Source of the DNA: Mobula hypostoma | Lineage: Eukaryota | Assembly (NCBI RefSeq): GCF_963921235.1 | Contig: NC_086097.1 | Span: 129,644,001-129,708,000, forward strand | Length of the DNA stretch: 64,000 bases | Reading direction: 5' to 3' | Part shown: in pieces, positions 4,360 to 61,369 of the stretch | Layout: every line of letters begins with the position of its first letter | Position numbering within the stretch: position 1 is the stretch's first letter | Notes under the pieces: model-generated | What the model was told of the DNA's origin: nothing | Databases searched by the model: none | What the model saw: only the letters and a program-made list of their open reading frames with translations | Program-made: the position numbers and the translations under genes

Positions 4360-6240
4360 TGTGTCCGTCACCCATTGAACATTGTCTTGTACAATATTAC
4401 TTCCTGTAAGGTCGGCTGGCGAAGTGGCAGTGACCCTTCACTTCTGGATGAGCTCAGTGCCTTTTATGCACACTTTGACAGGGAGAAATATGATATACCC
4501 ATACAAGCCTCCACATCACTGGATGGTCCTGTAACCTTACTTTCTGAAGCTCACATCCAGGCATTCTTTAAAAGAGTGAATTCATAAAAGGCATCTGGTC
4601 CAGATGGCACACCTGGCTGAGCACTAAAGATCAGTACAAATGTATTCAACCTCACCTACTGAGGTCCTCACCTGCTTCAAAAAAGGAATCTATGTTTCAG
4701 TCTGAAGAAGAGCATGGTGACTTGCCTCAATTACTACCATCCAATAACACATCAACCACAATGATTGGTTATGGTGCATATCAACTCCTGCCTCAGATGA
4801 CCTGGATCCACTCCAATTTGTCAACCACGCATGCATTTTCTCTGGGTCTTCACTCTGCTTTGGCCCACCTGGACAATATGAACTTGTAAGTCAGACTGCT
4901 GTTCATTGACTGCAGCTCAGCGTTCAAAACAGTTGTCCCATCCAAACTCAGTGTCAAGCTTCAGGACCTGGGCCTCTGTACCTCCCTCTACAAATGGATA
5001 CATAATTTCCTAATCAGCAGGTCTCAGTTAGTGAGGATTAGTAACATCTCACTGACCATCAGCATAGGTGCACCTCGAGACTGTGTGTTTAGTCACCTCT
5101 CAAATCTCTATACCCATATAATTGTGTGACTAAGCACAGCGCTTATGCCATCTTCAAATTTCCTTAGGATCACAGGTGGTGGTGAGTCAGCACACTGGAT
5201 TGAGGTAGGTCACCTGGATGAGGAGTGCCACAAAAACCACCTCTCACTCAATGTTAGCAAAACTAAAGAACGGATTGAAAAAGAATCTAATTTTTTCCTG
5301 GCATATATGACAAATAAACTCTTCTCAGACTTCCTACTGGGTACAGGTATCGATTATGACCAACTTTTCGATGACAAACTCTGCCATCTTCTTCAGACAT
5401 CATCCCTGAAGAAGCTGACAGAGTTTGTCTTTGAAACACCGGTTATAATCAATACCTGTACCCAGCTGGGAGCCTGAGACTGTTCACTTCAGGAAGGGGA
5501 AGGAAGTCAAACATGCACCAGTCTACATTTGGTGAATCAGTGGTGGAGAGAGTCAGCAGCATTCAAATTCTGGGTGTCAAAATATCAGTTGACCTGTCCT
5601 TGTACCAGTACATAGATGCAATCAGAAGGAAAGCAGGCCACTAAACACTTGAACAAACTTCTGCAGATGTACTGATCGAAGTATCCTGACTGGTTGCATC
5701 ATGGTCCAGAATGGCAATTTAAATGTGCAAGAACTGTACCTGATGTACATATGTGTATACAAAACAATTATGTATACAACTTGGTGTTCGGGCAATATCC
5801 TCCCACATTTACCCCCTTTTATTGTTTGTGCATTGTGACAGAGACACAATATAAAGATTTCTACTCCCTTGGATGCAAGAAATAAAATAAATACAAATAC
5901 AAATTAATAAGCTGCAGAGAGTAACTCTGCCTAATGTATCAGCGACACATTCCTCGCAACCATTTGTAGACTCTACAGGAACCACTGCCTTGTGAAGGCA
6001 ACGTTCGTCATCGTGCCTTCTTCTCACAGCCACCATCATGCATGAAGTACAGAAGCTGAAAGTCCCACAGTACCGGGTTCAAGAACAGCTATATGCTTTC
6101 AACCATTCAATTTTTGAACCAACATGCAAAACCTTAATCATTCTGTTTAGCAATGCTATGAACACTTTGTCCATTTAGCACTAAAATTGATATTTTAATT
6201 TTTTTTTTGTAAAAATAACATGTAATTTGTTTTTATTTTG
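4360..6240 (+). mobile_element. Decayed Rex1/Babar-type LINE (RT region) with nested insertions
   Basis: Remnant motifs LLDELSAFYAHFD, LLFIDCSSAFKTV and LSLNVSKTKE, with many stops. Confidence 0.75.
5312..5485. mobile_element. Fold-back Penelope-like mini element (family 2) with two inverted hammerhead-like cores
   Basis: Inverted arms about 5323-5396 and 5406-5479 with a 9-nt spacer. Each arm has CTGAAGA-A-stem II-GAAA. It interrupts the surrounding Rex1-type LINE. Confidence 0.7.
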
Positions 6241-6299
6241 TAAGTGCTGTTTAGTCCATCTGCTGTTCACTCTTCACTCTCCAAGCAAAGAAAATAATG

Positions 6300-6860
6300 C
6301 TCAGTGGCCAGTTTAGTAGGTACATGCATATATACCTGCTCATCAATGCAAACATCTAATCAAGCAATCATGTGGCAGCAACTCCATGCTTAAGAGCATA
6401 CAGACAAGGTCAAGAGGTTCAGTTATTGTTCAGACCAAACATCAAAATGGGAAGAAATGTGATCTAAGTGACTTTGATCGTGGAATGATGTTGGTGCCAG
6501 ATGAGGTGGTTTGAGTATTTCAGAAACCATGGACCTCTTGGGATTTCCACTCATGAGTCTCAAGAGCAGGGGTTCCCAATCTTTTTTGTGCCATTAAGCA
6601 AGGTGTCTGGGAACCCCTGCTCTAGAGTCTACAGAAAATGGTGCAAAAACAGAAGAAACATCCAGTGAGTGGCAATTTTGTGGACAAAAATGCCTTGTTA
6701 ATGAGAGAGGTCAGAGGATATTGTCCAAACCTGTTCCAGCTGACAGGAAGGCAACAGTAACTCGCATTGTACCAGTGGTGTGCAGACGAGCATCTCTGAA
6801 CACAAACACGTCAAACCTTGAAATTGATGGGCTATATCAGCAGAAGGCCATGAACTTGCA
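6300..6860 (+). mobile_element. Tc1-like DNA transposon remnant
   Basis: Starts with ctcagtggccagtttagtaggtac. Encodes a decayed N-terminal HTH MGRNVI/CDLSDFDRGM..GAR*GGLSISET.DLLGF (frameshifted). Confidence 0.75.
6567..6619. mobile_element. 53-bp hAT (Charlie-type) mini-MITE
   Basis: TIRs CAGGGGTTCCCA / TGGGAACCCCTG. 8-bp TSD ctcaagag (6559-6566) and ctctagag (6620-6627) matches the NTCTAGAN target. Confidence 0.85.
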
Positions 6861-8564
6861 GCATGTAGGTTGTTGGATAGGTACCATACTTTGTTACTTT
6901 GCACAAGGCGTATAAATGTAAACTTTCACAGCTTTATTGGAATAAATGTTTTTTATTTGTTTATAGAATTATTACAGAGTGGAACCAAAGATTTCGTTAC
7001 ACTCAGACATCATTTGGCTCATCAAATTTTGTATTGCAATGTGGACCCAATCAAGGAGAATACTTTTCTCTATAGATATAAAGATTTTTTTAAAAAATTA
7101 TTATTTAAAACACGTGAAAATGTGTATCTCTGTCAAGGGAAGAATAGGCTTTAAATATAGTTTAGGTGCTGGCCTGTAGCACAAACTACCAAGAATAATT
7201 GGTACACATGAGACCGAGAAACTAAGAGTTCTCTAGTTCTGCTTATGAGAACTTCTGACAGGATATTGCTCAGTAACTTTTAACTTGCCTATATAAGACC
7301 CAGATAGTCATGTAAAACCCAAAATTATGTAATGAGGGGAAAAGAATCAGAAGCATTGTCAGCAAATCTATTTAGAGTCAGTTTGTTGTTTAAGCTAGAA
7401 AAAAATAAACCCAGACATAAACTACCATTGTAACATCAAGGGTTTAATGTTGAAGAATTTTCTTTTAAGAGCTGTCTTCTTTTCCCTGTGGTTAAGTGTT
7501 TGACTCTACTTTAGTTTCTTCCTGATGAGGTTGCTGTTTAACACTGAGGTTATGGGCAAGAGTGTATATCTTTTAAATATATATATATTTATCAATATCC
7601 TTAAACATTAGGACAGCAGGTCACTTGTAAACAATATACCTTTTGCAGTTTGAAAATGAAATCAACATTGTACTTGGTTGGGGAGATATTTCTAATAATA
7701 CTTATTATATTTCTTTAAATTGGTTCTAATAAGTTGCGTAGGTAAGGTGGAAGGTTAAAAATTGGGAATGGCAAAGGCATTCATAGTTCACTAGACTCTG
7801 GATCAGAGAAGAATAGTTTGGGATATTGTCTTAATGACAGTAACCTAGGGCACAGAATTTTTTCTGAGCCACAAAAAAATACACTGAACTGGTGAGACAT
7901 CAGGGTTTGTGCATTATATGTGCAACCCCCCCTCCTCACCTCCCAGCATTATTCTATTGCACATAAAACCCAGGGATCATGTGAAATTAAAATGAGTAAC
8001 AAGAGACAACTGGATAATGACAGGTCGGGTTGTGGTGTGACTGAGGGAAGCCAAGGGAAGTTCACATCTTGTTGGCATTAGATTAAGATAATGATGGCTG
8101 CATTTGAGCATTTGTGAAGGAATGTGGAATCAGTGACATGACCATGTAGGTTGTACACAGGGTGTTGGGTACATGGAATGAGCTTCCAGTGAAAACTGTA
8201 GAGCCAGGTACAATTTCCTTTAAAAGACATTTTCACGAGTACATGGGTCAAATGCAGGCAAATGGGATATGGGATTAGATCAGATGGGTACCTTTATTGG
8301 CATGGACGAGTTGGTCCAATGGGCCTTTTTCCATGATGCCTAACTCTGATGTCAGGGCTTTGAAGATGTCAAGCATCCTTGAGTCCAGTATTGAGTTTGA
8401 AAGGTATTCACATGGGGTGTGCTTTGAGTTAGGTGTGCGCCTGTGAGGGACAAGTTCAAAATCTAAAAAGATCATACCTGTGTGAGGGTCCATATGTTGG
8501 CCTTGGCAACAATGAAGCAAGTCAGTCTGGTTCCCTTTGTGTAGCAATGCACAGCAGAATTTCT

Positions 8565-9390
8565 AGATAGATAGATAGATATACTTCATTAATCCCAAGG
8601 GAAATTTGGTTTTGTTACAGCCACACCAACCAAGAATAGAGCGTAAATATAGCAATACAAAAAACCCCAACAATCAAACAACAAAATGCAAAACTATGCC
8701 AGATGGAAAATAAGTCCAGGACCAGTCTATTGGCTCAGGGTGCCTGACCCTCCACGGGAGGAGCTGCACGTTCGATGGCCACAGGCAGGAACGACCTCCT
8801 GTGCCGCCAAGTGTTGTATCACGATGGAATGTGGCCGAAGTCCAACAGTAAGAAGTTCAATATCCAGTCTGCAAACACGTTCCTCGATTATAATATACCC
8901 CGGATTGCACCATCCGTTGTTAGCCAGATCAGTAAGCACCCCACTCCTTCACGCCGCTACCGCTCTCGGTGCACTTCCTGTCAGGCAGAACGGTATTACC
9001 CACCCAACTCCTCTTCTCCAAAAGTCTCTGTTGTCTTGACCCGGTCCTTTTTCCTCGGCTTTGTGATTCCCCCTCTGTGTGTTTTCCTCCAGATTTCAGC
9101 AGGGGTGTCTGCCGCTCTGTTCGCTAAGCCGACCGGAATTTGCTGGTCCGTGGAATACACAATGCGACCTTGCTTCTGTCCCGCGTGTCAGGAAGTAACC
9201 ATTTCCAGTGCTAAAGAAAACCCAAATAAAACTCTCTCTAACAGCATATTAGAGAGGGTGCAGCTTCGACGTGTTACCGTGAGAAAAAAAATACCAAAAA
9301 ATAATGTAAATTAAAAAGTAGGAAGAAGAAAGTAAAAGAATAGATCGGAACGGCTGTACCAGGCTGCATGCACGACCGGCGCATGCGCAC
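8565..9390 (-). mobile_element. Bipartite, internally deleted Rex1/Babar non-autonomous retroposon
   Basis: (TATC)n tail, APE fragment NNGWCNPGYIIIEERVCRLDIELLTVGLRP fused to the RT C-terminal RRSFLPVAI, and a 6-bp TSD atttct (8559-8564 / 9391-9396). Confidence 0.75.
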
Positions 9391-10999
9391 ATTTCTGGGC
9401 CAAGAGCAATGTTTTTGTGCACAGTGCCGACTGCAAACTTGGGCATGAATACAAAAACTGCTCTGAAAGGTGAAACGTAACCTTTTAACTGGGAAGGTTG
9501 AAGTACAATAATAAAAGATAAAGGTATATTTGTCAGTCTTGGTCAGATCCTATCAATGTTCAGTTCCACTTGACAAGATTCAAGAGAACTGTTGTGGATA
9601 TTTTTAAATTCATTTTAAAGGATGTGGGCTTTGCATACAAGGCCATTATTTATTTCCTACTCAACAGTTCTTGAAGCTGATGGTAAGCTCACATCTTGAG
9701 TCACCATTATAATCCTTATGAAGGTGGTTTATTTATTTTTCTCCCCCAGTGCTTTTGGGTTATGACTTTCAGGACATGGTTCCATTGATGAAGAGCAACA
9801 ATGTGTTTCCAAGTTTAAGATATCTTATGACATAGATGACCTGCAAGTGTGTTTGCTGCTCTTGTCATTGATGGTAGAGGGCAGGTTCATTTTGTTGATA
9901 GTACCAAAGGGCTGGAATGTTTAGGGTAGTGGATGGGATGCCAATGAGGCAGACTGTTTTGTTTCTGTATGTTGATCAGTTTTATTGATTGTTACCGTTG
10001 GGCTTGTTGAGGAATGTGGAGAATATACAAACACTCCTGACTTGTGCCTTGCAAAAAAATTGTGGGGTTTTATAAAGTGGGTTAGTAACTGCACAACCTT
10101 GTCCTTTGATCTGCTGTTGTAGTCAATATATTTATGCAGCCGGGCCAGTAGAGGTTCTCGTTAGTGATGAGCAGTTTTCCATATTGAATTCCTGTCATCA
10201 CCAAACAATATATAATTACCTTGTGGTTATTTTAGTAACCTACAGTAGTTTTTATGTCTTGCATTGTACTAGTGCCACAAAACAACACATTTCATGAAAT
10301 ATGTATGTGAGTGATAGTAATCCTGATTCTGGATAGTTAGGATGAAGAGCACATTTTTAATGTGTTTGAGTATTATAAAGGATACAGACATGGGATTAAC
10401 TATAAAAGGTTTTATACACTTGGTGTGCACTTCCCTGAAATTTGAAAGTGCGGGGTATTATTTAAGATGTAAAGGATATTTTGGGGATAGATATAGATAT
10501 ATCCTGACATGTATTCTTGCATCAGGAGCATAAACAAAAGATCATTATTCTGAAGCAAATGTACAGATTTATTAGAATGAAGAGCAGACATAGAAAGCGG
10601 AACCAGCTACTTTTTGTTTCTGATTTCACTTTGTGCAAAAAGTCTAAAGCTTATCTCCTGTTTGCACCATTTCACCCCACTCCTCGTCACCACTATATTT
10701 GCTGATCTAAACTTCTCAAAACGGCTTAAGAACTTAAAATAGCAGATTCGCTCCATGTCTATAATCTTTTCAATGCTAAAAGCAGTTTTTTTAATATAAC
10801 TTGCTATCTTCCTGAAATAGCTCCCTATGCATCTCCACTTTCCACCTGTCATTCACTGTTTTACATTCGGCTGTGTAGATTCTAACCTTTGAGTTTCGCT
10901 CTAAACCTCTATCCTTCAACCCTGCTTAAAGCTTGCCTCGGTTGATTAAGGTGGCTATTAACTTCTCAACATCTCCTTGGGTTCAAATCAGTGAACATT

Positions 11000-13890: not shown

Positions 13891-14057
13891 CCCCTGACCA
13901 GTTTCTACATTACTGGTACTGTACATTAGTAATCTCTGGCTGAGCATGCAAATGTAGTGTCAGATTAAGAGCTCTTGTAGAGGTCTGGTGGCATTGGGAT
14001 TTGTAACTGAAATTTTAAAAATAAATCTAGTTTAATTTAATTTTAAAAATTTTATAT

Positions 14058-15290: not shown

Positions 15291-15328
15291 TGTGTGTGTG
15301 TGTGTGTGTATGTATGTATATGTATATA
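15290..15328. repeat. (TG)n/(TA)n microsatellite
   Basis: gtgtgtgtgtgtgtgtgtgtatgtatgtatatgtatata. Confidence 0.9.
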
Positions 15329-15654
15329 TTTTATAAGCTATTGTATTTTTTCTTCTTGTTGAAAATAACAAATTTCACAACATGTGCCAGTGATATTTAA
15401 GCTGATTCTGATTCTTTCAAAAAAAAACTATCAATTCCGATAGAAATCTAAGTGTCCTATGTACTGTGATTAAAGGAAGAAATATGAAAGTGGAAACAGG
15501 AGCACATTTATCATTGCATAGATAATGCTATTCCAGTAAACAGGAAAATGAATATAGTAGGATGTACAGTTTAAATCTATTGTCTTCTCATATAGCAAAT
15601 GAATGTGACATGTTATAATGTTTAATTCATTGTGATATAATCTAGGACTAATAA

Positions 15655-15924
<270 letters not shown>

Positions 15925-16239
15925 TAAGAAGGCCTGTGTAATACTGATAATACGTTTGTGGGAAGAACAAGGTATTTAATTGTATGTTTAAACTGTTGAT
16001 TACCATTTTGAGAGGACTAGAAAGCATAATCATATTCAAGCTTTAGCAAGTTGGTATTGAAGGACAGTTGAAGCCAATGGTAGTGGATAGCCAAATGTTG
16101 GTCAAGCCACAAGAAGACTTCTCTGTTCTTTTGCATCTTCCTGAACTATGAAGCCTTGATTTAACACCACAGCTGATAGATTTCATCTCTAAAGCTGTAG
16201 CACTTAGTGCTACACTAAAATGGCAGCTTACATTGTAGG

Positions 16240-22489: not shown

Positions 22490-22699
<210 letters not shown>

Positions 22700-22950
22700 C
22701 TGCAACGTTATTCAACAGGAGCACCAAATGATCATGTCCTGCAAGGGACAGCAAAGCCCTCAAAATTGAACCAGTGCCAATAATATAATGTTGGCTCTCA
22801 GGATTCTGGAAGGATCTCAAAGTTTCTTTCAAGAAAAAAAAGTTACACAGTTAAACTATTGTCAGTATGTCTTTGATTATTTATATATTCTATTATGTTT
22901 AATTCACCATTGTCTTTCACTTGGTTTATCTAAATGCCTTATCATATGTA

Positions 22951-23210
22951 AACACGAGGAAATATGCAGATGCTGGAATTTCAGACAACACACATAAAAT
23001 TTGCTGGTGAATGCAGCAGACCAGGCAGCATCTTTAGGAAGAGGTACAGTTGACGTTTCGAGCCGAGATCCTTCGTCAGGACTAACTGAAAGAAGAGCTA
23101 GTAAGAGATTTGAAAGTGGGAGGGGGAGGTCTTGGCCCAAAACGTCGACTGTACCTCTTCCTAAAGATGCTGCCTGGCCTGCTGCATTCACCAGCAACTT
23201 TTATGTGTGT
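22951..23210. mobile_element. Fold-back Penelope-like mini element (family 1) in the SLC66A2 3' UTR
   Basis: Arms about 22986-23070 and 23128-23212. 16-bp TSD tgcctta(t/c)catatgta at 22935-22950 and 23211-23226. Same terminal sequence as the GIY-YIG-bearing copies at 31722 and 60477. Confidence 0.85.
23048..23083 (-). ncRNA. Minimal type-I hammerhead ribozyme motif (partly degenerate)
   Basis: Minus strand AGTC-CTGACGA-A-GGA-TCTCGG-CTC-GAAA-CG-TC-AACT. The core is intact; stems I and II carry mismatches. Confidence 0.6.
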
Positions 23211-26200
23211 TGCCTTACCATATGTACCATTTTGGAACATTTTTGTTTTCTGAGATTTCCCCCCCCCCCCACTGGTGTTTCGTACATCTTGCAATGTGAT
23301 TGTGTTTTGATCATCTAACAAAAACAGTTTTTGTTAAATCCTTTACACATATCCAAAGAATCTTGCACTAAGCACCCACTTTTAAACATGAATCTTGATT
23401 CATTGTCATATGTTATTATGACCACCATTTCCACTTTCTTCTCAAAAAGCCACAAGGAGACAAATTTAAAAGAAATCTGTTTTATATTTGGAAGACACAG
23501 AATCCATTTCCACACTACTTTGTTCAAGTGATCCGAGTAATTTTATCAGTAACTAGTTAAAATTGGATCCGCAACAGCTTTCAGAGGTATCATGGGGAAC
23601 TGGGAGCCAACTTAATTTGTTGATGATTGGATGCCTCAGTGATGTTGCCGTTGGTACTGGGCACACTGGAGTGGAAGAGAAAGTTTGGACATTAATTTAG
23701 TGCTTCGGATCCCCACCACACTTCACACCAGGTGCTTATCCAGGGTGAATTCTGAGCGCCTCTCAGAGTGAAAAGTGTTGGTACAGTGTTTGCTAAAGAC
23801 AAGAGAGACTAAGATATTTGCTCTATCATGAATGATAGACGATCACAGGAGAAGAGCAAAAAGTAAAAGAAAATATTTTGTCAGATATACTCCATACTCA
23901 GCAATGAAGTAAGTTAATTGTAGTCACTTTCCATCTTTGGTAAAAATAGTAATGGAAGTGAGAGTTCTTTTTAACAAAATTGATGACATTTACTCTTTCA
24001 ATGATCTCCAAATGCTGACTCTATTTTTACCCTTTCCTCTAGATTTATTGGCATGTTATCTTCACACATCAATTTTGCATGGTGGTGTAGCAATCATTCC
24101 TAAACACAGATCTAGTTTGCCTTTCATCTGCCCCACTTCTCGATGCTCTCATTGGTGCTTAAATCTGCCTACATTTTTTTGCAGTGGATTTGCTTAAATA
24201 AATAAGCATTTATATGTAGGAATTTCAACTATAATCCATTTTGGATGCTTCCTGTGCTGTTCTTCATATCAAAAGACTAACTCAATATTTTCTGTCTTCC
24301 TATTTGGGGAATGTCCTGGTACTATCATCCGCTTTCCCCACGCCATGGTGATTCCTTCATACTCAGCACTCTGAGACAGCCATTGGAGCCAGAGGCCAGG
24401 TTTTACCACTTTTAATATAGTTGACTAATCCAATCCATTTCCTACAAAGAAAAGTTCGTATGATTACATTAACAGCTGAATAAAATTAAATCTTCTTTGC
24501 AGAATACTTCATTAAAGAACTTGGTACCAATGAATTCCAACCCCTTAATGGAAGTATGATATTACAGTCCTTACAGTCATATTCTTAAACTGTTGAACTG
24601 AGATCTGATCATTTTTTTGTGTGAGCAATAGTGTTACAATTAGTTATTTGACATTCACAGGATTCTAGCAGTCTGTGAAATTGTATTCTCTCAGACTGAA
24701 GTTAAACTGTTACCAGCTAACTTACAATGGCTGGAAGCAATTTCACCTAGTTTTGTAAATAGGTGAGTAAAGCTGTTACAGAACTGTTCCACTGGGTGAC
24801 CTACCTTTGGCTGTGTAGAGCAACAAATGAGAGTTGTATCTTGAAAGGTTCTTAACAATTTCAGAATCAGGTTATCACTGACTTAGATGACATAAAATTT
24901 GTTTTTTTGTGGCTGCAGTATAGTGCAAAATCAAAATTGCTATAAAATTACAAAAATAATTAGTGTATTAAAAAAAAGGGATAAAGAGGTAGTGTTAATG
25001 AGTTTATGGACTGTTTAGAAAGCTGTTGGAGAAAGAGAAGGTGTTCCTGAATTGTTGAGTATGAGTCTTTAGGCTCCTTTACCACTTCCCCCAGTGGTGG
25101 TAATAAGATTTACAATCCACTTTCTTAATTTTGCTTGGGAGCTATTTACTGAATTTCTGCTATAACTTTGTCACTGGATAACATTTGCTCTACAACAGGT
25201 TGCTGGTTGTCATTGTTTGCTTTGGGCCTAAGTGACCTTACAAATTTAAAGAGGAACATTTTAAGCCAAGTTGTCTGTGCTTGTGTGTTCATACTGCAGC
25301 ATGTGTATTCAAAACCTAGGGGCCTGCTAAATGCTGGCCTTTCTAATCTAGTTATAAAATATTTAAATTTTCTAAAATATTTTCTTAAAATACTTTTCAA
25401 AATCAAGAACAGTTCCATATTTGTGCCATATTTGTTCTTCTATTAGCTGCTCTAAAGATTTAGTAACAAAACATTTATTCTGCTGAAACCAGTTTGCGCA
25501 GTTTTTCATACTGGTGTTCTGAGTAAACCTTGCCTACCTTTATAACCCAGACTCTACAGTCACCATGTAAACACTTACACCGGCCTAATCCAGTCATTTG
25601 TGCAGTTTGTAGCCAGCATATGGCCACAGTACAAGATATAGCCTTCTGTTCTCAATTAGCAAGCAAAAAAAAGAGGCTGATCTTGTCTGGCATCATCCAT
25701 TGTAACTGCTAGCTTTTAGACAAGTTCCTATACCTGTTTATAATTTTAGTGTGAATTTCTGCAAACTCAAAGGAAAGTCACACCATCTTATCATTAGCTT
25801 GCTTAATATTTTGATATTTATTAAATACATACAATGGGATTTATACTTTGCTTTCGGGAATCTTAAAATCTCTATCTGTATTCCTAGAGTATGAAATACC
25901 ATTACTAGTGCACGTTGAAAAATAGAGGTATTCCTAAACTTGATTCCTGATATTAGGTGCAATAATCTCAATTATGTTTACATAATGTTTTCTTGTCTAT
26001 TTGGTTTTCTGCTAAACGGTAGGAAAGTATTTACAATGGGGGATAAGTCAAATGGGTACATTTGGATCTCGCACTTCTTGACTGGTCATGAAATGTTTAA
26101 ACTTTTTCATTTTTTGTTCTTACCGGTTACGTTGAGTAGGTTTACATCATGTTAGCGTTTAATGTGTGTTTATAAGTATTTGAATAATTGACATCTTGTA

Positions 26201-27566
26201 TTATGTCAAATCTACCAAAAAAGTAAAAGATTTGTTCATTGTCTAAAGGAACCAGGTGAAAGGACTGGACTGAACTGGCACAAGAATGTGGCACAACACA
26301 GCCAGCCTTAGCCTGTGCTGCCGATCAGCATTGTATGTAGGTGCTTTGATGTATTACATATAAGATTACTGAATGAAACGAGAAAACATGACAAAACTTG
26401 AAGTGCATTCATTAGAGACTCTGTATTCATGCATTAAACTAAAACTTAAATAAAAGTATTTGGAACTGAGAATAGATTCTTGTGAATGCAATTATTTCCT
26501 TCCAATTAAAAGCTTAGATTAGAGCACACATTTCTAATGTTATATTTATCATGTAAGTAACCACAAATATAAATTACAAATATATACTATATTACTATTA
26601 ATTTCCATATTGTCAAGAGTGATTCTGTTCATGGGATATGTTGCATTAAAATACATGTTAATTTTGATTTTCCTCTTGCATAGGGGTATGCCTTACAGAT
26701 GATGCTCTTGTCTGTTACCGTTAACAAGTCTAGGACAGTCCAGACTGATTACTCAAGCAATGAATCATAGATTTTGATGATTAATGGTGGCACAGTTTTA
26801 TGGATATGTTCTCTGATGTAAATGTGCTATACTTTTTGAAGATGTCATTAGAAGTCTTCAGCCACATAAGGAGGAGAATGTGGTAATTTGTGCATTAACG
26901 TTTCATTCTCTGTGAAAGCCCAGACTTGACTCACTTTTTCCTAAAATATCCAGTCAGAACTCTGTCTCAAACCAAAATGTGACAATTTGAATAAAGAAAG
27001 ATACTGTACAATGACAAACTGGAAACAATCATCAATACTTTGAAAATGCCCCAATCAACATGCATACCTTCTGCTAATGAGCAACTTCTGTTTATCCAAA
27101 CTTTGACATGCAATTGTTTGTTGTGCTAAATATAGGCTTGAAAACTTAGGAACTGCTGTTTTTTTTTTATTTTTCAAAGAAATTTTTAAGTGAAAAATGT
27201 GATTTCATATTTGGTTTTCTCAGAGCATTCTGAAGTTAATTCATTAAATTGCCCACCCTTTGTAACACTGGCTGCATTCAAATCTTAAATTGCATCCTGA
27301 TTACAAATCTGCAAGTTTAAGCTTTTTTTTGTGGGGGTGAGGGCATTTTAAATACTGTATCCCCAAAGCAAACCCTTTGTAATTGATTGAAGTCACTTGA
27401 ATGCAAGTACTTAAAAATTGGATTAGATACCAATTGAGTTATTTTTGGTTTGTTCAGTTAACACAATAATGCAAGTTATTGATTTTTGTTTGAACAAAAG
27501 CACCTCCGTGAAATTTCATTTAAAAGCATATTAGAGCCTGCAAATAGCAATGGCTAAAGGCACAGG

Positions 27567-27775
27567 ACTGCAGATGCTGCAATCTGGAGTGACACACAAG
27601 ATGCTGAAGGAACCCAGTGAATCAAGCAGCAGCTGTTGAGGGAAATGGACAGTTATTGTTTTGGTCAAGACCCTTCATCTGAATGGGATGAAGAGTCTTG
27701 ACCTAAAATGTTGACTGTCCATTTCCCTCCACAGATGCTGCATGACCTGCTGAGTTCTTCCAGCATCCTGTGTAT
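27567..27775. mobile_element. Fold-back Penelope-like mini element (family 3), hammerhead cores decayed
   Basis: Arms about 27594-27679 and 27687-27773 with a 7-nt spacer. gatgaagagtcttgacctaaaatgttgact is a degenerate version of the family-1 hammerhead. Confidence 0.7.
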
Positions 27776-30572: not shown

Positions 30573-31677
30573 TTCAAGTCAAGTCAAGTCACTTTTTATT
30601 GTCATTTTGACCATAACTGCTGGTACAGTACACAGTAAAAACGAGACAATGTTTTTCAGGACCATGGTGCTACATGAACAATACAAAAACTACACTGAAC
30701 TACGTAAAAAAACAACAAAACTACACTAGACTACAGACCTACCCAAGACTGCATAAAGTGCACAGAACAGTGCTGGCATTACAATAAATAATAAACAAGA
30801 CAATCAGCACAGTAGAGGGCTGTAGGTTGGTGTCAGTCCAGGCTCTGGGTATTGAGGAGTCTGATGACTTGGGGGAAGAAACTGTTACATAGTCTGGTCG
30901 TGAGAGCCCGAATACTTCGGTGCCTTTCGCCAGATGGCAGAAGGAAGAAGAGTTTGTATGAGGAGTGCGTGGGGTCCTTCATAATGCTGTTTGCTTTATG
31001 GATGCAGCGTGTGGTGTGAATGTCTGTAATGGCGGGAAGAGAGACCTCAATGATCTTCTCAGCTGTCCTCACTATCCGCTGCAGGGTCTTGCGATCTGAG
31101 ATGGTGCAATTTCCAAACCAGGCAGTGATGCAGCTGCTCAGGATGCTCTCAATACAAGCTCTGTAGAACGTGGTGACGATTGGGAGGGGTAGGAGATGGA
31201 CTTTCCTCAGACTTCACAGAAAGTAGAGACCCTGCTGGGTTTTCTTTGCTATGGAGCTGGTGTTGAGGGACCAGGTGAGATTCTCCGCCAAGTGAAATTT
31301 GGTGCTCTTAATGATCTCTATGGAGGAGTCGCCAATGTTCAGTGGAGAGTGGTCGTTCCGTGTCCTCCTGAAGTCAGCAACCATCTCTTTTGTTTTGTTC
31401 ACATTCAGAGACAGGTTCTTGGCTCTGCACCAGTCTGTTAGCCGCTGCACCTCCTCTCTATATGCTGACTCATCGCTCTTGCTGATGAGACCCACCTCGG
31501 TCGTGTCAGCAGTGAACTTGATGTGGTTTGAGCTGTGTATTGCTGCACAGTTGTGGGTCAGCAGAGTGAACGGCAGTGGACTGAGCACACAGCCCTGGGG
31601 GGCCCCCCGTGCTCAGTGTGATGGTGTTGGAGATGCTGCTTCCAATCCGGACTGACTGAGGTATCCCAGTCAGGAGA
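30573..31677 (-). mobile_element. Rex1/Babar LINE, 5'-truncated
   Basis: ORFs 31214-31588 (LSPLPFTLLTHNC, LSLNVNKTKEMVADFRR) and 30833-31072 (RTAEKII, TTRLCNSFFPQVIRLLN), with an (ACTTG)n tail. Confidence 0.9.
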
Positions 31678-31721
31678 CATCAATGCATCTATTTCTGAAA
31701 AGTATTTGCAGCTAGAACAGC

Positions 31722-32526
31722 AGACACGAGGAAATCTGCTGGAAATTCAAACAACACACACAAAAAATGCTGGTGAACACAGCAGGCCAGGCAGCATCTA
31801 TAGGAAGAGGTACAGTCGATGTTTCAGTCCGGGACCCTTCGTCAGGACTAACTGAGAGAAGAGATGGTAAGAGATTTGAAAGTGGGAGGGGGAGGGGGAG
31901 GGGGAGATCCGAAATGATAGGAGAAGACAAGAGGAGAGGGGTGGATTTAAGAGCCACACATTTTAATTCCACATCCCATTCCCATTCTGATGTCTATCCA
32001 CGGCCTCCTCTACTGTCAAGATGAAGCCACACTCAGGTTGGAGGAACAATACCTTATATTCCGTCTGGGTAGCCTCCAACCTGATGGCATGAATATTGAC
32101 TTCTCTAACTTCCATTAATGCCCCTCCTCCCCTTCACACCCCATCCCTTATTTACTTATTTAATATATTTTTAATATTTTTTTATTTCCCCCCTTTTTTT
32201 TCTCTCTCTCTCTTTTTCTCCCTCTCTCCCTCTCACTATAACTTCTTGCCTGCTCTCCACCCTCCAAGCTCCCCTCCCCCCTTCTCTTTCTCCCCAGGCT
32301 TCCCGTCCCATGATCCTCCTCCTTCTCCAGCTCTTAGATCCACCCCTCCCCTCCTGTCTTCTCCTATCATTTCGGATCTCCCCCTCCCCCCCCACTTTCA
32401 AATCTCTCACTCGCTCTTCTTTCAGTTAGTCCTGACAAAGGGTCCCAGCCCAAAACGCCGACTGTACCTCTTCCTATAGATGCTGCCTGGCCTGCTGCAT
32501 TCACCAGCATTTTTTGTGTGTGTTGC
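31722..32526 (+). mobile_element. Penelope-like element: inverted terminal repeat, GIY-YIG C-terminus, and terminal repeat with hammerhead remnants
   Basis: ATHFNSTSHSHSD..IHGLLYCQDEATLRLEEQYLIFRLGSLQPDGMNIDFSNFH* at about 31952-32118. Arms about 31752-31945 and 32338-32526. 13-bp TSD ttgcagct(a/g)gaac at 31706-31718 and 32523-32535. Confidence 0.9.
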
Positions 32527-32755
32527 AGCTGGAACCAATACATTTGTTGGCAATGGAAGTGCCTCAGTAAAGCAGCCAGCATAATCAAAGTGCTCTCCCA
32601 CTCTAGACATTTTCTCTTCTCTCCTCTCCCATCAAGCAGAGGATACAAAAGGCTAAAAACATGTACCAGTAGCTTCAATGACAGCTTCTACCCTGCTGGT
32701 AGAAGACTACTGAATGTTTGCTAATATAATAAACTGGTCTGTTGACTTTACAATC

Positions 32756-46500: not shown

Positions 46501-46550
46501 TGTTTCCTACATTTGACCAATGACCCACTTTTCTGTAAATCCAGGAAAGC

Positions 46551-48684: not shown

Positions 48685-48689
48685 CTATA

Positions 48690-52100: not shown

Positions 52101-52439
52101 CTGGTGCCTTCCATTTTCTATTGTCATTGAGGGTTCTTTGTCAACAAACAGTTTTATGGACGTCAGATTCAGTTATATTTTTATGCCATTCTAAACATCA
52201 AGTAACATTGGGAGTATGATTGGGAGTATGGTTAGTTGACAGTAAATTGCCCCAGAAGAAGGTGAGTGGCTGAGTCTAGAAGAGTTGATAGGAATACAGG
52301 ACAAAAAAAAACTATATTGATGTAAATTGGTGCTTGATTGTTTATGCAAGTTCCGTGGGCAGGAAGGTCTGTTTCTGTACTATGTCATACTACGACCTCC
52401 AACAGTAGTAATGTCTTGGGGGTCGCCAATTCCATGAGT

Positions 52440-55245: not shown

Positions 55246-55714
55246 GAATATATGATTCAAAGTTCACTTACCAGAGATGAAGATAAACATATCACAAAAG
55301 CTAAATAGCATTAATATCATTAATCATGTGAGTGAAAATACTGAAACTGAGCAATTAAGTTTAGTTAAGATAAAAATCTAGGCAAAGCTTTGACGGTTTG
55401 TAGGATTTGTAGACTGTGTGGCATTACGCACATTGTAATGCCAAACAGATTTTCAGCTGTCTGCTAGCTAGTGTCTGTCCAGTTGATGGCGTGCTTTCAA
55501 TCAGCCATCATTTTAACAAACAGCAGATAAAAAATTGCTTCAGAATACCTCACCACTCTGACCTCTGTTCTCCTTAGCTTTCCAAAGAGCTCATATCTCG
55601 TACAACCATGAAATAAAACACTTCAATCCAGCCTCAAGTATCTTGATGCATACTTGATGGTAAATTTGCGAAGGTGTATGCACCTCAGATACAATTAACA
55701 ACAGTGCAAGAATT

Positions 55715-58200
55715 TAAATAAGAGCAGAAGAAATAGGGGTAGGAGTAGGCCATCTGGTCTATTGAGCCTGCTCCACCATTCAATAAGATCATAGCCGATC
55801 TGGCCATGGACTCAACTCCACCATCTGCTTTTTCCCCATAACCCATAATTCCCCTACTATGCAAAAATCTATCCAACCTTGTCTTAAATATATTTACTGA
55901 GGTAGCCTTCGCTGCTTTATTGTCAGAGAATTCCACAGCTTCACCACTCTCTGGGAAAAGCAACTCCTCCTCATCTCCATCCTAAATTTACTCCCCTGGA
56001 TCTTGAGACTATGTCCCCTAGTTCTAGTCTCACCTATCAGTGGAAACAACTTTCCTGCCTCTATCTTATCTATCCCTTTCATAATTTTATGTGTTTGTAT
56101 AAGATCTCTTCTCAGTCTTCTGAATTCCAGCGAGTACAGTCCCAGGAGACTCAATCTCTTCTCATAGTCTAACCCTCTCATCTCTGGAATCAACCTGGTG
56201 AACCTCCTCTGCACCACCTCCAAAGTCAGTATATCCTTCTTCAAGTAAGGAGACTAGAACTGCACGTAGCACTCCAGGTGCAGCCTCACCAGTACCCTGT
56301 ACAGTTGCAGCATAGCCTCCATTCTCTTAAATTCAATCCCTCTAGCAATGAAGACCAACATTCCATTTGCTGCCTTGATAGCCTGTTGTGCCTGCAAACC
56401 AAACTTTTGTGTTAAGTGGATGACCTTGCATTTCTTTTTTCTTTTAGGCATCCGTTAGTCTCATGAGACCATGGATTTGCACCTTGGAAGGGTTCCAGGG
56501 CACAGGCCTGGCCAAGGTTGTATGGAAGACCAGCAGTTGCCCATGCTGCAAGTCTCCCCTCTCCACGCCACTGATGTTGTCCAAGGGAAGGGCATTAGGA
56601 TCCATACAGCTTGGCACTGGTGTCGTCGCAGAGCAATGTGTGATTAAGTGCCTTGTGCAAGGACACACACACTGCCTCAGCCAAGGCTCGAACTAGCGAC
56701 CTTCAAATCACTAGACAACCCCCTTAACCACTTGGCCACGTGCCAACACACATGCATTTACCAACATTATAAAACTCCATTTGCCAGACCCTTGCCCACT
56801 CACTTAACCTATCTATATCTCTCTGCAGACTCTCTGTATCCTCTGCACAGTTTGCTTTTTCACTCAATTTACTCAATTTAGTATCATCAGCAAACTTAGA
56901 TACATTACACTCGGCCCCCTCTTCCAGATTGTTAATGTATATCGTGAACAGTTGCAGACCCAGCACCGATAACCTGCGGCACACCACTGATTGCCAGCCA
57001 GAGTAACACTCATGTATCCCAACTCTCTGCTTTCTATTAGTTAACCAACCCTCTATCCATGGTCATACATCACTCCAACTCTATACATCCTTGTATTATG
57101 GGTAAGTCTTCTATGCGGCACCTTACCAAACACCTTCTGGAAATCCAAGTTAATAACATCTGTCCTTCCCCTCTCTACACTGCACTTGTATTATCCTCAA
57201 AGAACTCCAGAAAGTTTGTCAAACAGGACCTGCCTTTGCTGAATCCATACTGTGTCTGATGGATCCATTTCTTTCCAGATGCCTTGCTATTTCTTCTTTA
57301 ATGATAGCTTCAAGCATTTTCCCAACTACACATGTTAAACTAACTGGCCTATAGTTATCTGCCTTTTGCCTACATCGTTTTTTGAACAGTGGCATGAAAT
57401 TTACCATCTTCCAATCTGCTGGGACCTGCCCACAGTCCAGAGAATTTTGATAAATTATCACCAAGGCCTCTAATATAACTTCTGCCATTTCTTTCAGTAC
57501 CCTGGGATGCATTCCATCAGGACCAGGGGACTTGTCTATCTTTAGGCCCACAAGTTTGCTCAGACTACCTCTTTAGTGATAACTATTGTATCAAAGTCCT
57601 CACCTCCCATTGCATCCATATAATCTCTCTTTGGCGTGTTAGACATGTCCTCCACCATGAAGGTCAATGGAAAATAGTCATTCAAAGCCTCGACCATTTC
57701 CTCATTACCCAATATTAATTCCCCCTTCTCATCCTCCAAGGTACCTATGTTCACTTTAGCCCCTCTTTTCCACTTTATGTAATTATAATATCTTTTACTA
57801 TCCATTTTTATATTTTGTGCTAGTTTATTTGCGTAATCTATCTTCTCTTTATTGTTCGTTTAGTGGTTCTTTGTTGCTTTTTAAAGTTATCCCAATCTTC
57901 TAGTTCCCCTGTCCTCTTGGCGACTTCGTATGCACGAGCTTTTCATTTGAAGGCTTCTTCTATTTACAAGTTATCGAAGGCTGGCTCTACCCACCCTTAC
58001 TGTCCTTCCTCTTAACTGGAATATACTTTTATTGAGCACCCTGAAAAATCTCTTTGAAAGTCTTCCACTGTTCCTCAACTGCCTCACCATATAGACTGTG
58101 TTCCCAGTCTATGCTAGCCAAATCCTCCCTCATCCCATTGTTGTCTCCATTGTTTAGGCATAATACACTGGTTTTAGATTAAACTATGGCACCTTCCATT
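55715..58200 (-). mobile_element. CR1 LINE ORF2, fragmented
   Basis: KSPGPDGMHPRVLKE, NYRPVSLTCVVGK, SKFADDTKL and VQRRFTRLIP. Confidence 0.9.
56434..56750 (-). mobile_element. tRNA-derived SINE (same family as 3539-3850) nested in CR1
   Basis: High similarity to the 3539-3850 copy, with boxes A and B, an A-rich tail and a probable TSD tgcattt (56427-56433 / 56753-56759). Confidence 0.9.
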
Positions 58201-58399
58201 CGTATGATGAGCTGTAGTTGATAAAGAGCATCCTGACGTATGCACCTTTGCTGTTCAGATGTTCTGGGGTTGAATGGAAAGCCAGTGAAACGGCATCCGC
58301 TGTGGATCTGTTTGCTGGTCGTCAAACTGAAGCAGAAACAAGTCGCTTCTCTGGCGGAAGTTGATGTGTACAGGGGAACTCTTTGGATCTAGTCAACAT

Positions 58400-59430
58400 A
58401 AACCCATTAGTTTCAAGATTGCCCAAAAAAGGTAGTAAATGGAGAATGTTCTGCTTCAATGACCAGTAGTGTTCCGCAGGGATCTGTTCTGGAACGCCTG
58501 CACGTTGTGATTTTTATAAATGATGTGAATGTGGGAGTGGAAGTTTACAGATGCACAAAGATTGATAGAGTTGTGGTTCATCTTGAGAGATGTTGTGGGT
58601 TGCAAAAGGACATTGACAGGATGCAGAACTGGGCTGAGAAGTGGCAGATGGAATTCAACTCAAAAGTGTGAAGTGATTCATTTTAGAATGTCAATTTTGA
58701 AGTCAGAATATAGGGGTTGATGGCAGGATTCTTAGCAGTGTGGAGGAACAGAGTGATCTTGGGGGTGCACCTCCATAGATCCTTCAGAGTTGCCGTACAA
58801 GTTGATAGAGTTGTAAAGAAGATTCATGGTGTGTTGGCCTTCATTAGTCAGGGATTGAGTTCAAGAGCTGTGAAGTAATGTTACAGCTCTATAAAACTTT
58901 GGTTATACTACACTTGGAGTATTGTGTTTGGTCTGGCCACTATAGGAAGGAGGTGGAACCTTTAGAGGGGGTGCAGGGGAGATTTACCAGAACACTGCCT
59001 GGACTGGAGGAAAGGTATTCTAAAGATGGTTTGAGCGAGCTAGAGATTCTCTCTTTGGAATGAAGGAGGATGAGACGAGATTTGATAGAACGTACAAGAT
59101 GATAAAAGGATAGACAATGAGAATAGCTAGAGAGTTTTTCCCCAGGGTGGACATTACTAATACCAGGGGGCATAATTTTAAAGTGATTGTTAGAGGAAAG
59201 AATAGGAAGTTGTTAGACATTAATTCTTTACACAGAGAGGAGTAGGTGTGTGGAACGCCCAGGCAGGGGTGGTGGTAGAGGCAGAATCTTTAGGGACATC
59301 TAAGAAACTCTTACATAGACATATGGATGATAGAAAAATGAAGGTTATGTAGGAGTAAAGGGTTAGCGGTAGGTTAAAAGGTCAGCACAACATTGTGAGC
59401 CAAAAGGCTTGTACTGTGCTATAATCTATC
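58400..59430 (+). mobile_element. Decayed CR1 LINE 3' part
   Basis: TSSVPQGSVL, WAEKWQMEFN and LQLYKTLV..HLEYCV. Confidence 0.85.
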
Positions 59431-59549
59431 TTCATGATTATGGAGAAGGATAGGACTGGTTCTTGGGTTGAGATTCAGTACTTCAGTAAGCAACACCATT
59501 CTATATCAATTCTCAAAATCAGTGGATCCTGGACTGCAGACTTGGGCCA

Positions 59550-60476
59550 TGAGTGCAGTTCTTCTTTAAGAAAAAGGAAGCACAGAAGGCGCACTGGTCT
59601 ACAGGTGCGATTGAAACATAGAGGTCTTAGATCCTTACTCCTAATTTTCCTGCTGGTGAATGTACAGTCTCTGGAACATAAAACTGAAGGCTTCAGAGCA
59701 AGATTGCAATACCAGAGGGACATCAGGAGCTGCTGTGTCCGACCACTTTGCTTTGTGGAAACATGGCTCAGTCCCGCTATTTCAGACACAGCGCTGCAAC
59801 CCGAGGACTTCTCCGTTCACCATAAGTACAGGATAGTTGAGGTTTTTTAAAGGCAAGAGAGGTGGAGGATGCTTCCTTGTTAACTCATCAGCGTGCACAG
59901 ATTCTCTCTCAATTCTGTTCACCCAACCTGGAATATCTAATGGTCAAATGTGGTCCATGTTAACTGCCGTGGGAGATACCTGCTATCATCCTGGTAGTAA
60001 TGTACACTCACTTCTGGCCAATGTCAGGCAGGTACTGGAGGAGCTGAGCACCGTGACCAGCAGTCATGAAACTGTGCACCCTAATGCTCTCCCCATCACT
60101 GCAGAGGATTTCAAACATGCCAGCTTGAAGAAGTCTTTGAACAGCTACAACCAACATATCACCTATGGAACCAGAGGAGTCAACACACTTGCCCTGTTTT
60201 ATACCATTATCAAGAACACATACTATGCTATCCCACTTCCACACTTTGGAAAATCCGATCACTGTCTGCACTTCTACTCCCAGTGTCCAGGCAAAGACTA
60301 AAGACTGCAGCACTAGTTGTAAGGACTAAGAAGGTATGGTCAAGAGAGGAGGTGGAGAACTTACAGAACTGCTTTGAGTTGATGGACTAGTCAATATTCA
60401 GGGACTCATCTTCAAATCTGAATGAATATGCCACAGATGTCACTGACTTCGTGAAGACCTGCGTGGATTAGTATGT
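59550..60476 (+). mobile_element. Rex1/Babar LINE 5'/APE region, cut by the Penelope insertion
   Basis: GLQVRLKHRGLR...NVQSLEHK...CFVETWL and HFGKSDH. Confidence 0.8.
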
Positions 60477-61369
60477 AAACAACAGGAATTCTGCAGATGC
60501 TGGAAATTCAAGCAACACACATCAAAGTTGCTGGTGAACGCAGCAGGCCAGGCAGCATCTGTAGGAAGAGGTGCAGTCGACGTTTCAGGCCGAGACCCTT
60601 CGTCAGGACTAACTGAAGGAAGAGTGAGTAAGGGATTTGAAAGCTGGAGGGGGAGGGGGAGATGCAAAATGATAGGAGAAGACAGGAGGGGGAGGGATAG
60701 AGCCGAGAGCTGGACAGGTGATAGGCAAAAGGGGATACGAGAGGATCATGGGACAGGAGGTCCGGGAAGAAAGACAAGTGGGGGGGACCCAGAGGATGGG
60801 CAAGAGGTATATTCAGAGGGACAGAGGGAGAAAAGGGAGAGTGAGAGAAAGAATGTGTGCATAAAAATAAGTAACAGATGGGGTACGAGGGGGAGGTGGG
60901 GCCTTAGCAGAAGTTAGAGAAGTCGATGTTCATGTCATCAGGTTGGAGGCTACCCAGACGGAATATAAGGTGTTGTTCCTCCAACCTGAATGTGGCTTCA
61001 TCTTTACAGTAGAGGAGGCCGTGGATAGACATGTCAGAATGGGAATGGGATGTGGAATTAAAATGCGTGGCCACTGGGAGATCCTGCTTTCTCTGGCGGA
61101 CAGAGCGTAGATGTTCAGCAAAGTGGTCTCCCAGTCTGCGTCGGGTCTCGCCAATATATAAAAGGCCACATCGGGAGCACCGGACGCAGTATATCACCCC
61201 AGTCAGCAAAGCGGTGTCCCAGTCTGCGTCGGGTCCTCCCTTAGTGCTACACATGCCCTTACACTTCCTCCCTTACCACCATTCAGGGCCCCAAACAGTC
61301 CTTCCAGGTGAGGCAACACTTCAGCTGTGAGTCAACTGGGGTGATATACTGCGTCCGGTGCTCCCGATG
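60477..61369 (-). mobile_element. Penelope-like element 3' part: GIY-YIG endonuclease, terminal repeat with hammerhead, and 5' inverted segment
   Basis: ORF 60904-61254 GVIYCVRCSRCGLLYIGETRRRLGDHFAEH...HF..EEQHLIFRLGSLQPDDMN has the GIY-YIG signature. Confidence 0.92.
60575..60610 (-). ncRNA. Minimal type-I hammerhead ribozyme, intact core
   Basis: Minus strand AGTC-CTGACGA-AGG-GTCTCGG-CCT-GAAA-CG-TC^GACT. Stem I is AGTC/GACT, stem II is AGG/CCT and stem III is palindromic ACGT. Predicted cleavage after GUC, between 60579 and 60578. Confidence 0.8.

Follow-up and report, generated by a model that had tools for sequence, protein, structure and literature searches.

A 64-kb window from the ray Mobula hypostoma (the window being the whole stretch of DNA analysed, 64,000 nucleotides) carries five insertions in which hammerhead-type ribozyme sequence accompanies inverted repeats, some of them short enough to resemble pure hairpins. 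The question raised by this arrangement is whether the inserts are truncation products of Penelope-like elements (PLEs) or a distinct non-autonomous class of ribozyme-bearing hairpins mobilised in trans, both of which were put forward by a sequence-only reading of the window. The evidence described below favours truncation products. The inserts are referred to here as A (about 5278), B (22951), C (27557/27567), D (31719/31722), and E (60477).

Architecture of the inserts

In a scan that was blind to the hammerhead motif, the five inserts supplied the window's six strongest local inverted repeats (I1-I6). At all five loci, two 5′-truncated arms are paired head to head. Inverted repeats had been recognised earlier at four of the inserts; the count is five, since the insert at 60477 has a plus-strand arm at about 61243-61369 that faces its minus-strand arm. 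One arm per insert bears a tail of 33-45 nt, both in the four complete inserts and at the surviving end of E, so that the one-armed extension first noticed at 22951, 27567, and 31722 is found there and in A and E as well. Insert sizes span 200-890 bp with the same architecture throughout, and the three short hairpins (A, B, and C) are 200-262 bp in length and fold far below shuffled sequences (z of -20.2, -11.4, and -10.7). Within the 85-nt common arm, all five non-CpG shared-state columns unite the two arms of one insert, and none of the five groups arms from different inserts. Target duplications are significant in two of the five inserts (14 nt in B and 10 nt in D) when compared with 3000 random flank pairs. 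These statements on architecture are drawn from a sample of five inserts in a single 64-kb window.

Insert A (5278-5477) lies within an older repeat, and rejoining that host repeat places its true start near 5278, rather than at 5312 as initially read, with a 45-nt tail (5278-5322). The tail-bearing arm (5278..5396, minus strand) has C3 as its 5′ end; its minimal hammerhead (5396-5362, minus strand) has an 8-bp stem II and a changed C15.2 and lacks the 5′ strand of stem I. The tailless arm (5397..5477, plus strand) opens with a 9-nt spacer (5397-5405), followed by a decayed hammerhead from 5406. A candidate 5-nt target duplication (5273-5277 / 5478-5482) has one mismatch and is not significant. 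Translated from an ATG at 5387, the arm gives the opening 36 codons of a Poseidon-like frame, interrupted by two stops; the view that the short hairpins are devoid of coding content thus holds for B and C but not for A. That 36-aa frame (two X) matched none of 1.84 billion proteins at E<=0.001, the query being short and decayed.

Insert B has a tail-bearing arm (22951..23129, minus strand; tail 22951-22985) whose 5′ end lies 50 nt upstream of C3 and whose hammerhead (23079-23052, minus strand) has a complete core with damaged stems I and II. Its tailless arm (23128..23212, plus strand) starts within stem II at +9, lacks the CUGA box, and has a changed G12. The two arms overlap by 2 nt at their junction, and the 14-nt target duplication (22937-22950 / 23213-23226) has one mismatch (P=0.0007, 3000 random flank pairs). 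In C, the tail-bearing arm (27557..27681, minus strand; tail about 27557-27593, its left limit being placed to within a few nt) and the tailless arm (27687..27775, plus strand), which starts at core G5 after a spacer of 5-7 nt, each hold a dead hammerhead relic; its candidate target duplication was not significant against random flank pairs.

Inserts D and E are longer and retain coding remnants. The tail-bearing arm of D (31719..31954, minus strand) has a 6-nt deletion in its tail (31719-31751), reaches about 109 nt upstream of C3 at its 5′ end, and carries a hammerhead (31845-31818, minus strand) with a changed G16.2. The tailless arm (31953..32525, plus strand) is the longer of the two, running from the frameshifted end of a GIY-YIG frame (31953-about 32115) into the 3′ UTR and a hammerhead (32432-32459, plus strand) that is dead through changes at G8, G12, and U16.1. 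Since the longer arm is the tailless one, simple copying of one arm cannot have produced the other. The arms overlap by 2 nt at the junction and are enclosed by a 10-nt target duplication (31709-31718 / 32526-32535) with one mismatch (P=0.001, 3000 random flank pairs). In E, the tail-bearing arm (60477..61235, minus strand) comprises the tail (60477-60512), a hammerhead (60606-60579, minus strand), 3′ UTR, and an open GIY-YIG end (61203-60904). This hammerhead is the most intact of the set, with a complete core about 300 nt downstream of the stop. An internal re-copy of 33 nt is also present (61203-61235 repeats 61115-61147). The second arm (61243..61369, plus strand) encodes the linker CxxC and the start of the GIY-YIG domain and ends at 61369 at an unrelated repeat, its final 35 nt being an exact inverted copy of 61169-61203. 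No target duplication was found for E, whose right end is lost and whose sequence is rearranged.

Source elements

DNA comparison gives three sequence families, as had been estimated: B, D, and E form one family, C is a diverged relative of it with 76% DNA similarity, and A stands apart. The B/D/E family has a GIY-YIG remnant with Neptune-type Zn motifs; in E, the sequences VIYCVRCSRC and CGLLYIGET are found along with both histidines of the CCHH motif, two cysteines of which separate GIY from YIG. This fragment of E is 92% identical to the ray protein P0001, which scores E 4.6e-4 and 20.9 bits against Pfam GIY-YIG, under the cut-off of 22.6; P0024, a 44% relative, clears that cut-off with 28.8 bits, and the 88-aa fragment of E alone has no Pfam match. 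The linker of P0001 has a C-x4-C-x2-C motif, and the right arm of E begins at its CxxC half with 95% identity over 41 aa. A CX2-5CxxC linker motif before GIY-YIG has been described as marking the Neptune and Nematis clades (PMC8557442), and the B/D/E linker fits these two clades, which the motif does not separate. No RT sequence remains in inserts B, D, and E, and in the relatives P0001 and P0002 a YIDD-type segment precedes the endonuclease.

Each locus is very probably a dead-on-arrival insertion of an autonomous, endonuclease-positive PLE, of Neptune type in B, D, and E. The Penelope-like origin proposed earlier is supported in these three by GIY-YIG and Zn motifs, reaches C through DNA similarity (C probably being a Neptune-type insertion likewise), and extends to A by geometry alone, by which A is probably a Poseidon-type PLE. 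The geometry in A places the ATG where stem II begins, the predicted cut at +26, and the outer end at +110. PAc, a Poseidon element of Anolis carolinensis, has an ORF from stem II, a cut at +26, and RT starts at +111-118 (PMC11167929). A tail that would correspond to the gap between two RT start sites is common to PAc and A, although that of A is 45 nt long. In contrast to PAc, B, D, and E are of Neptune type and lack a long frame at the hammerhead. Scanning metagenome, viral, and prokaryotic genome collections for the family motif gave no match. None of 29 metagenome loci with distant protein relatives resembled the inserts at the DNA level, and the self-inverted stretches inspected in five of these (L009, L013, L018, L019, and L022) held no convincing hammerhead-bearing hairpin.

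State of the hammerheads

The pattern CTGANGARN{6,20}GAAA occurs nine times in the window against 2.08 expected, and none of 100 shuffles reached nine. Five of the nine matches sit in the named inserts; the earlier claim of hammerhead-type motifs in all five inserts is supported by this excess, but the strict motif is absent from the insert at 27567 (C). A complete core is found in two of the nine arms that reach the hammerhead region (60606 and 23079, minus strand), both with stem defects, and complete-core matches were absent from 200 shuffles; the three short hairpins keep a full core in one of six arms. A relaxed hammerhead descriptor gave four hits, whereas 20 shuffles yielded 0-5 each (mean 2.5), so there is no excess, and Rfam at E<=5 detected none of the five loci. 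Its one Hammerhead_1 hit, at 31476-31512 (20.7 bits, cut-off 34, E 2.8), was treated as chance, since it lacks GAAA and adjoins an unrelated repeat.

The hammerhead cores decay at the background rate: changes affect 5 of 64 core positions and 26 of 417 positions outside the core (Fisher P=0.59), and four of the five core changes are G-to-A at CpG. In B/D/E family contigs, the majority appears to keep the core; a consensus lacking an intact core, which had been named as an outcome against a hairpin class, is not what these contigs indicate. In predicted folding, the stem II of the left arm of A has a probability near 1.0 when folded alone (7 of 8 pairs >=0.94) and of 0 in the whole-insert fold, and in B and D every base of the GAAA is paired. 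The antisense arm is therefore predicted to sequester the hammerhead within the hairpins, where the ribozyme would be a pseudo-LTR passenger with no working role. The motifs are otherwise like the type-I hammerheads described for metazoan PLEs, with an unpaired base between 9 and 10.1, a palindromic 15.2-16.2, and no helix III, although most copies here are decayed (PMC4209133).

Origin of the two arms and the tail

An inverted, 5′-truncated copy with a 30-40 bp tail has already been described for endonuclease-positive PLEs in the accessible portions of PMC8557442, PMC3846280, and PMC8969392. Those complex insertions share head-to-head truncated copies, a tail at one end, a variable target duplication, and strong 5′ truncation with the inserts reported here; the published illustrations are of longer units, whereas three of our inserts keep pseudo-LTR sequence only. 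The inserts are therefore an ordinary, clean case of a known PLE insertion pattern, in a ray genome. Opposite-strand motif pairs 100-700 bp apart have also been noted in Schistosoma (PMC4209133).

Taken as a whole, the two-armed inserts are likely to be 5′-truncated PLE products; priming of both target ends is somewhat favoured as the way in which they were made. Work with PAc has shown that a PLE protein cleaves both strands of the target and extends them, and that RT starts at two internal RNA sites bounding the tail; the portion of that paper available does not trace inverted insertions to two-strand priming (PMC11167929). By this mechanism, a staggered cut would allow both 3′ ends to be primed, one from the outer start site and the other from the inner, both cDNAs would terminate early, and their ends would be joined through a 0-2 nt overlap or short filler. 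The short "pure hairpins" would then be the small end of a size range that includes D and E. Two details run against the published descriptions: the 45-nt tail of A slightly exceeds 30-40, and the RT start site is AC-rich in print, as opposed to the GU-rich family-B arm end on the hammerhead strand. A literature search, with subscription papers mostly outside its coverage, found neither a two-ended priming model nor a paper devoted to short fold-back PLE inserts.

Two-ended priming is familiar from L1 twin priming, where both target ends prime cDNA and the inversion is joined by microhomology. The second L1 primer copies RNA sequence that lies further upstream, whereas both arms of the inserts here start from the same 3′ region, so that the sequence is duplicated as an inverted repeat.

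Another possible route to the inverted duplicate is fold-back with self-priming, for which PMC3846280 proposes an antisense template; the one-sided tail would then be left by endonuclease trimming of the intermediate, as suggested in PMC8557442. This is the published reading of head-to-head palindromic junctions, and it would suit the near-symmetric turns in A and C (spacers of 9 and 5-7 nt), the 2-nt overlaps in B and D, and the source variants common to both arms. It is nonetheless a minority prospect, since the tail of D is on the shorter arm, an arrangement that rules out snap-back of a tail-ended cDNA and requires extra trimming, and since in vitro the tail equals the interval separating two RT start sites of a template and both target strands are extended. 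Another proposal, possible but tentative, is that stereotyped stops at the CUGA box, where the RNA might begin, be spliced, or induce a pause, repeatedly generate near-identical mini-hairpins that do not copy themselves. Five of ten arm ends, from three families, lie within -9..+9 of C3, although the end of A at -9 presumes that its spacer is element sequence. This weak clustering exceeds a crude random-truncation model at P 0.005-0.08 per insert, with a window chosen after the fact and with arms of one insert that are not independent. Positions 60597-60617 recur in the listed joints of family contigs, and 60610 is among the loose ends in three runs; those loose ends have a purine-rich consensus of low agreement (0.39-0.41), however, and 60610 may mark the point where related families diverge. 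In family B, the CUGA box is preceded at a distance of 6 nt by a pyrimidine tract that ends in CAG, and PMC4209133 places the intron end of D. virilis at the corresponding point. That several ray PLE families run off at the CUGA box and that some hairpins are then re-copied in trans is improbable. Template ends cut by the ribozyme were rejected, as none of the ten arm ends in the window is at the cleavage site.

A distinct hairpin family copied in trans as a unit, the more novel possibility raised by the sequence-only reading, is very unlikely. Non-autonomous PLE derivatives are known (retrozymes and MRC1), a hairpin transcript would include the tail region used by PLE proteins, and some listed joints are present in up to four contigs. 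Against this, every arm/spacer junction in the window is different, including the three family-B junctions (arm 5′ ends relative to C3: B -50/+9, D about -109/-465, E -597/about -689), a uniqueness that had been linked beforehand to independent truncation. Among family contigs, 221,208 of run X1 align to the 717-nt family-B piece, and the 15 strand-change joints listed of 352 rest on 1-4 contigs each at a depth of 6-146. No dominant fold-back joint is among those listed in four runs, a count that covers family B only, is incomplete in X1 and X5, could be affected by short contigs breaking at a high-copy junction, and may miss rare families. The scarcity of intact cores in the hairpin arms also argues against ribozyme-dependent copying, as does the head-to-head layout, in which the antisense arm would be transcribed first in either direction and pair with the ribozyme; minimal hammerheads require a same-strand partner, which an inverted arm cannot provide. 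Animal non-LTR retrozymes are similarly short non-coding derivatives of PLE pseudo-LTRs with type-I hammerheads, but the available text describes head-to-tail tandems with at least two same-strand ribozymes (bioRxiv 10.64898/2026.07.22.740005), as opposed to the single, tailed head-to-head pairs found here; retrozyme identity was rejected, as all five inserts are inverted pairs and none has two complete cores. The least credible explanation is that the hairpins formed after insertion from two neighbouring independent copies, or are MITE-like DNA transposons. The rearranged E, with its right end gone, might invite it, but both readings were rejected because a single target duplication encloses both arms in B and D, source variants are common to both arms, the tail makes the termini unequal in a way unlike terminal inverted repeats, and both arms represent 3′-terminal sequence of a GIY-YIG retroelement.

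Significance

PLE families seem to be little described in batoid fishes, and no elasmobranch example of a PLE complex insertion appears in the consulted portions of PMC8557442, PMC3846280, and PMC8969392. How the inverted arm and the tail originate is still described as undefined in the PLE literature, and insert D already distinguishes simple cDNA snap-back from two-ended priming. Given the abundance of the family, an assembly would yield thousands of two-armed inserts on which the origin of the arms and the tail could be tested. Should arm ends prove to accumulate at the hammerhead, this would show where the transposition template has its 5′ end in vivo.

Inverted-Repeat Inserts in the Window

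Inserts A to E (at 5278, 22951, 27557, 31719 and 60477) are real features, taking five of the first six ranks in a motif-blind scan of the 64-kb window for local inverted repeats. Together they cover ~2,381 bp, or 3.7%, of a window in which G+C content is 40.7%, CpG is 0.28 of expectation, and old repeats are abundant. Folding energies of A, B, and C lie 10–20 standard deviations below those of shuffles. Each insert has two arms, joined centrally by their 5′ ends and both reading outward in the hammerhead sense. A small inverted repeat at 6556–6630 (23-nt arms, 91%, 29-nt spacer) showed no kinship with A–E by blastn.

The hammerhead-type motif described in the sequence-only reading, when scanned as CTGANGARN{6,20}GAAA, is indeed over-represented, with 9 occurrences in the window versus 2.08 expected. 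A strict minimal-hammerhead core matched twice (60606 and 23079, both minus strand) and never in 200 shuffles; a relaxed descriptor matched the window no more than chance, and an Rfam search of the window recognised none of A–E. A sub-threshold Hammerhead_1 match at 31476–31512, which lacks the GAAA and adjoins an old LINE-like repeat, was judged a chance match.

Identity of the Elements

B, D, and E represent a single family (family B), with pseudo-LTRs 85–94% alike; C is 72–76% alike to these, and A is unrelated in sequence to B–E. The first arm of E retains the terminal part of a GIY-YIG domain, whose frame stays open up to a stop ~300 nt before the hammerhead, and the long arm of D carries the same part, frameshifted. 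Among named proteins, those nearest the coding remnant (60907–61170) come from rays, namely Mobula hypostoma (92%), Hypanus sabinus (65–86%), and Leucoraja (67%), which points to a batoid host. The E fragment alone has no match to the Pfam GIY-YIG model, while its protein relatives P0001 and P0024 (a 44% relative) score just below and above the cut-off, respectively. P0001 has C-x4-C-x2-C ahead of the domain and two cysteines within it, thereby showing both the linker and in-domain motifs given for Neptune/Nematis elements (PMC8557442). A weak tblastn match to P0001 residues 56–124 (35%, E 2e-5) at 1670–1852 (minus strand) may be an ancient remnant of some other Penelope-like RT region. Additionally, the element's GIY-YIG end recurs at 75–79% identity in several ray gene models (P0004, P0005, and P0016) that bear names of kinase-domain, mucin-2, or ATP synthase subunit isoforms, probably through absorption of Penelope-like element (PLE) sequence into predicted genes.

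No database relative was found for the reading frame of A. Its spacing, with an ATG where stem II begins, a predicted cut 26 nt later, and an outer end at +110, agrees with the anole Poseidon element PAc, whose RT start lies at +111–118 (PMC11167929); this is a likeness of geometry, without a protein match.

Tails, Junctions, and Target Duplications

B and D share the exact end base of their tailless arms, and the facing arms extend 33–36 nt beyond it. The host repeat around A is colinear after flank rejoining only with an insert start near 5278, so that the tail of A measures 45 nt. PLEs carry 30–40 bp tails, often single-ended (PMC8557442), or an optional 31-bp tail on one inverted pseudo-LTR (PMC3846280); thus, the one-arm extension that was left unexplained in the sequence-only reading is the known PLE tail. 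Tail end 60477 is among the commonest listed loose ends of the family, with 641, 593, and 91 contigs in sequencing runs X1, X5, and X10. In four X1 contigs and one X5 contig, 60477 is joined to 60517 on the other strand, which puts a tailed end near a tailless one, possibly a tail-to-tail arrangement absent from the window inserts. In each of A–E the left (minus-strand) arm is the tail-bearing one (two-sided chance 0.06, with E's other end missing), and host transcription or replication bias could account for this.

The second arm of E (~61243–61369, plus strand) encodes the portion of the frame upstream of the first arm, is truncated by an unrelated repeat, and lacks its outer end; the two arms overlap in an exact 35-nt inverted copy. 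At the junction (61203–61243), a 33-nt stretch (61115–61147) is re-copied, followed by a 7-nt filler and then the second arm, which suggests template jumping as cDNA synthesis ends. Junctions show a 2-nt overlap in B and D and a 5–9 nt spacer in A, C, and E.

Target duplications, described as 8–10 bp in PMC3846280, were found for B (14 nt, one mismatch, P 0.0007) and D (10 nt, one mismatch, P 0.001), each against 3000 random pairs. A and C have only unconvincing candidates (A: 5 nt, P 0.60; C: 6 nt, P 0.02 with the boundary picked post hoc, 0.92 otherwise), and none was found for E.

Is There a Self-Propagating Hairpin Class?

Relative to core position C3, arm 5′ ends lie at 0 and −9 in A (the −9 if the spacer is element sequence), −50 and +9 in B, +2 and +2 in C, about −109 and −465 in D, and −597 and about −689 in E. 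A single design spans insert sizes of 200 to ~890 bp, and every junction within family B is different. Contigs of four runs were aligned to 60452–61168 at 80% likeness, which covers family B only, and 221,208, 129,229, 56,191, and 17,322 were placed. Five of the best 15 of 352 joints change strand, each with 1–4 contigs per run and a depth of 6–146; these counts are incomplete in X1 and X5, short contigs may break at high-copy junctions, and X1 is possibly the source sample. A widespread fixed junction should have stood out, and none did among the joints listed, which, given the incomplete counts, is moderate evidence. Unique junctions were held in the sequence-only reading to count against a self-propagating class, and family B shows just these in the window, with only sparse joints listed in the runs. 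With junctions that differ, no common joint among those listed, and decayed cores, the distinct class of non-autonomous, ribozyme-bearing hairpins that it had raised as one alternative is unlikely.

A family devoid of an intact core, which was also held to count against such a class, is not what the runs indicate: all 40 listed differences (of 336) lie outside the catalytic core, which therefore probably survives in most of the family. Among the short hairpins A, B, and C, a full core persists only in B-left, whose stems I and II contain mismatches. Core changes in family B (5/64, four of the five being CpG transitions) are comparable to those elsewhere (26/417; P 0.59). In whole-insert folding, A-left loses stem II, and the GAAA of B-left and D-left becomes paired to the facing arm. 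Even when folded in isolation, E, B-left, and D-left form no stem II (probability 0.05 or less). Minimal hammerheads are described as requiring a same-strand partner and cleaving poorly (PMC4209133), PAc insertion proceeds in vitro without ribozyme cleavage (PMC11167929), and none of the ten arm ends of A–E starts at the predicted cleavage site. Metagenome contig L013 (1586–1615, minus strand) also has a hammerhead-like motif of the minimal type, whose 15.2–16.2 palindrome differs; a distant PLE RT match lies ~1.2 kb upstream of it.

Five of the ten arm ends, across three families, are no more than 9 nt from C3 (P 0.005–0.08 in three of five inserts under a crude exponential model, with the window chosen post hoc), and positions 60597–60617 recur among run joints. 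A run-off or pause hot spot at the CUGA box is possible; loose ends at 60610 may mark a mere family divergence point. In all four family-B arms extending that far, a CAG-terminated pyrimidine tract stops 6 nt 5′ of the CUGA box (60613–60640, 23086–23113, and 31852–31879 on the minus strand; 32398–32425 on the plus strand) and is a candidate for the 3′ splice site of a PLE intron that was retained. In D. virilis, an intron end has been mapped at the corresponding site (PMC4209133).

Mechanism of Insertion

In the 85-nt common arm, all five non-CpG shared-state columns pair arms within an insert (either both of B or both of D), which indicates a single source variant and a single event for both arms. 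Three CpG columns disagree, as recurrent decay would predict. A PLE protein, predicted to be a dimer, cuts and extends both target strands, and reverse transcription begins at two RNA sites bounding the tail (PMC11167929). On the simplest reading, both ends of a staggered cut would be primed, one per RNA start site, and the two short cDNAs then joined into a head-to-head insert. Such two-ended priming is reasonably likely. D, with its tail on the shorter arm, favors it over simple snap-back, since the short arm could not serve as template for the long one, nor the tailless long arm for the tail. Another published route, in which self-priming takes place on a longer antisense template and the endonuclease then trims the intermediate (PMC3846280, PMC8557442), is compatible with the geometry of D as well.

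Retrozymes are ruled out, being head-to-tail tandems, whereas A–E are head-to-head. A literature search, with most subscription journals outside its scope, found no paper dedicated to the shortest hairpins or to PLE families of rays. Opposite-strand hammerhead pairs 100–700 bp apart have been described (PMC4209133), as has an inverted 5′-truncated copy at the 5′ end of PLEs (PMC8557442). In sharing inverted truncated arms and a single-end tail with published insertions (PMC8557442, PMC3846280), A–E very probably belong to the known PLE insertion pattern.
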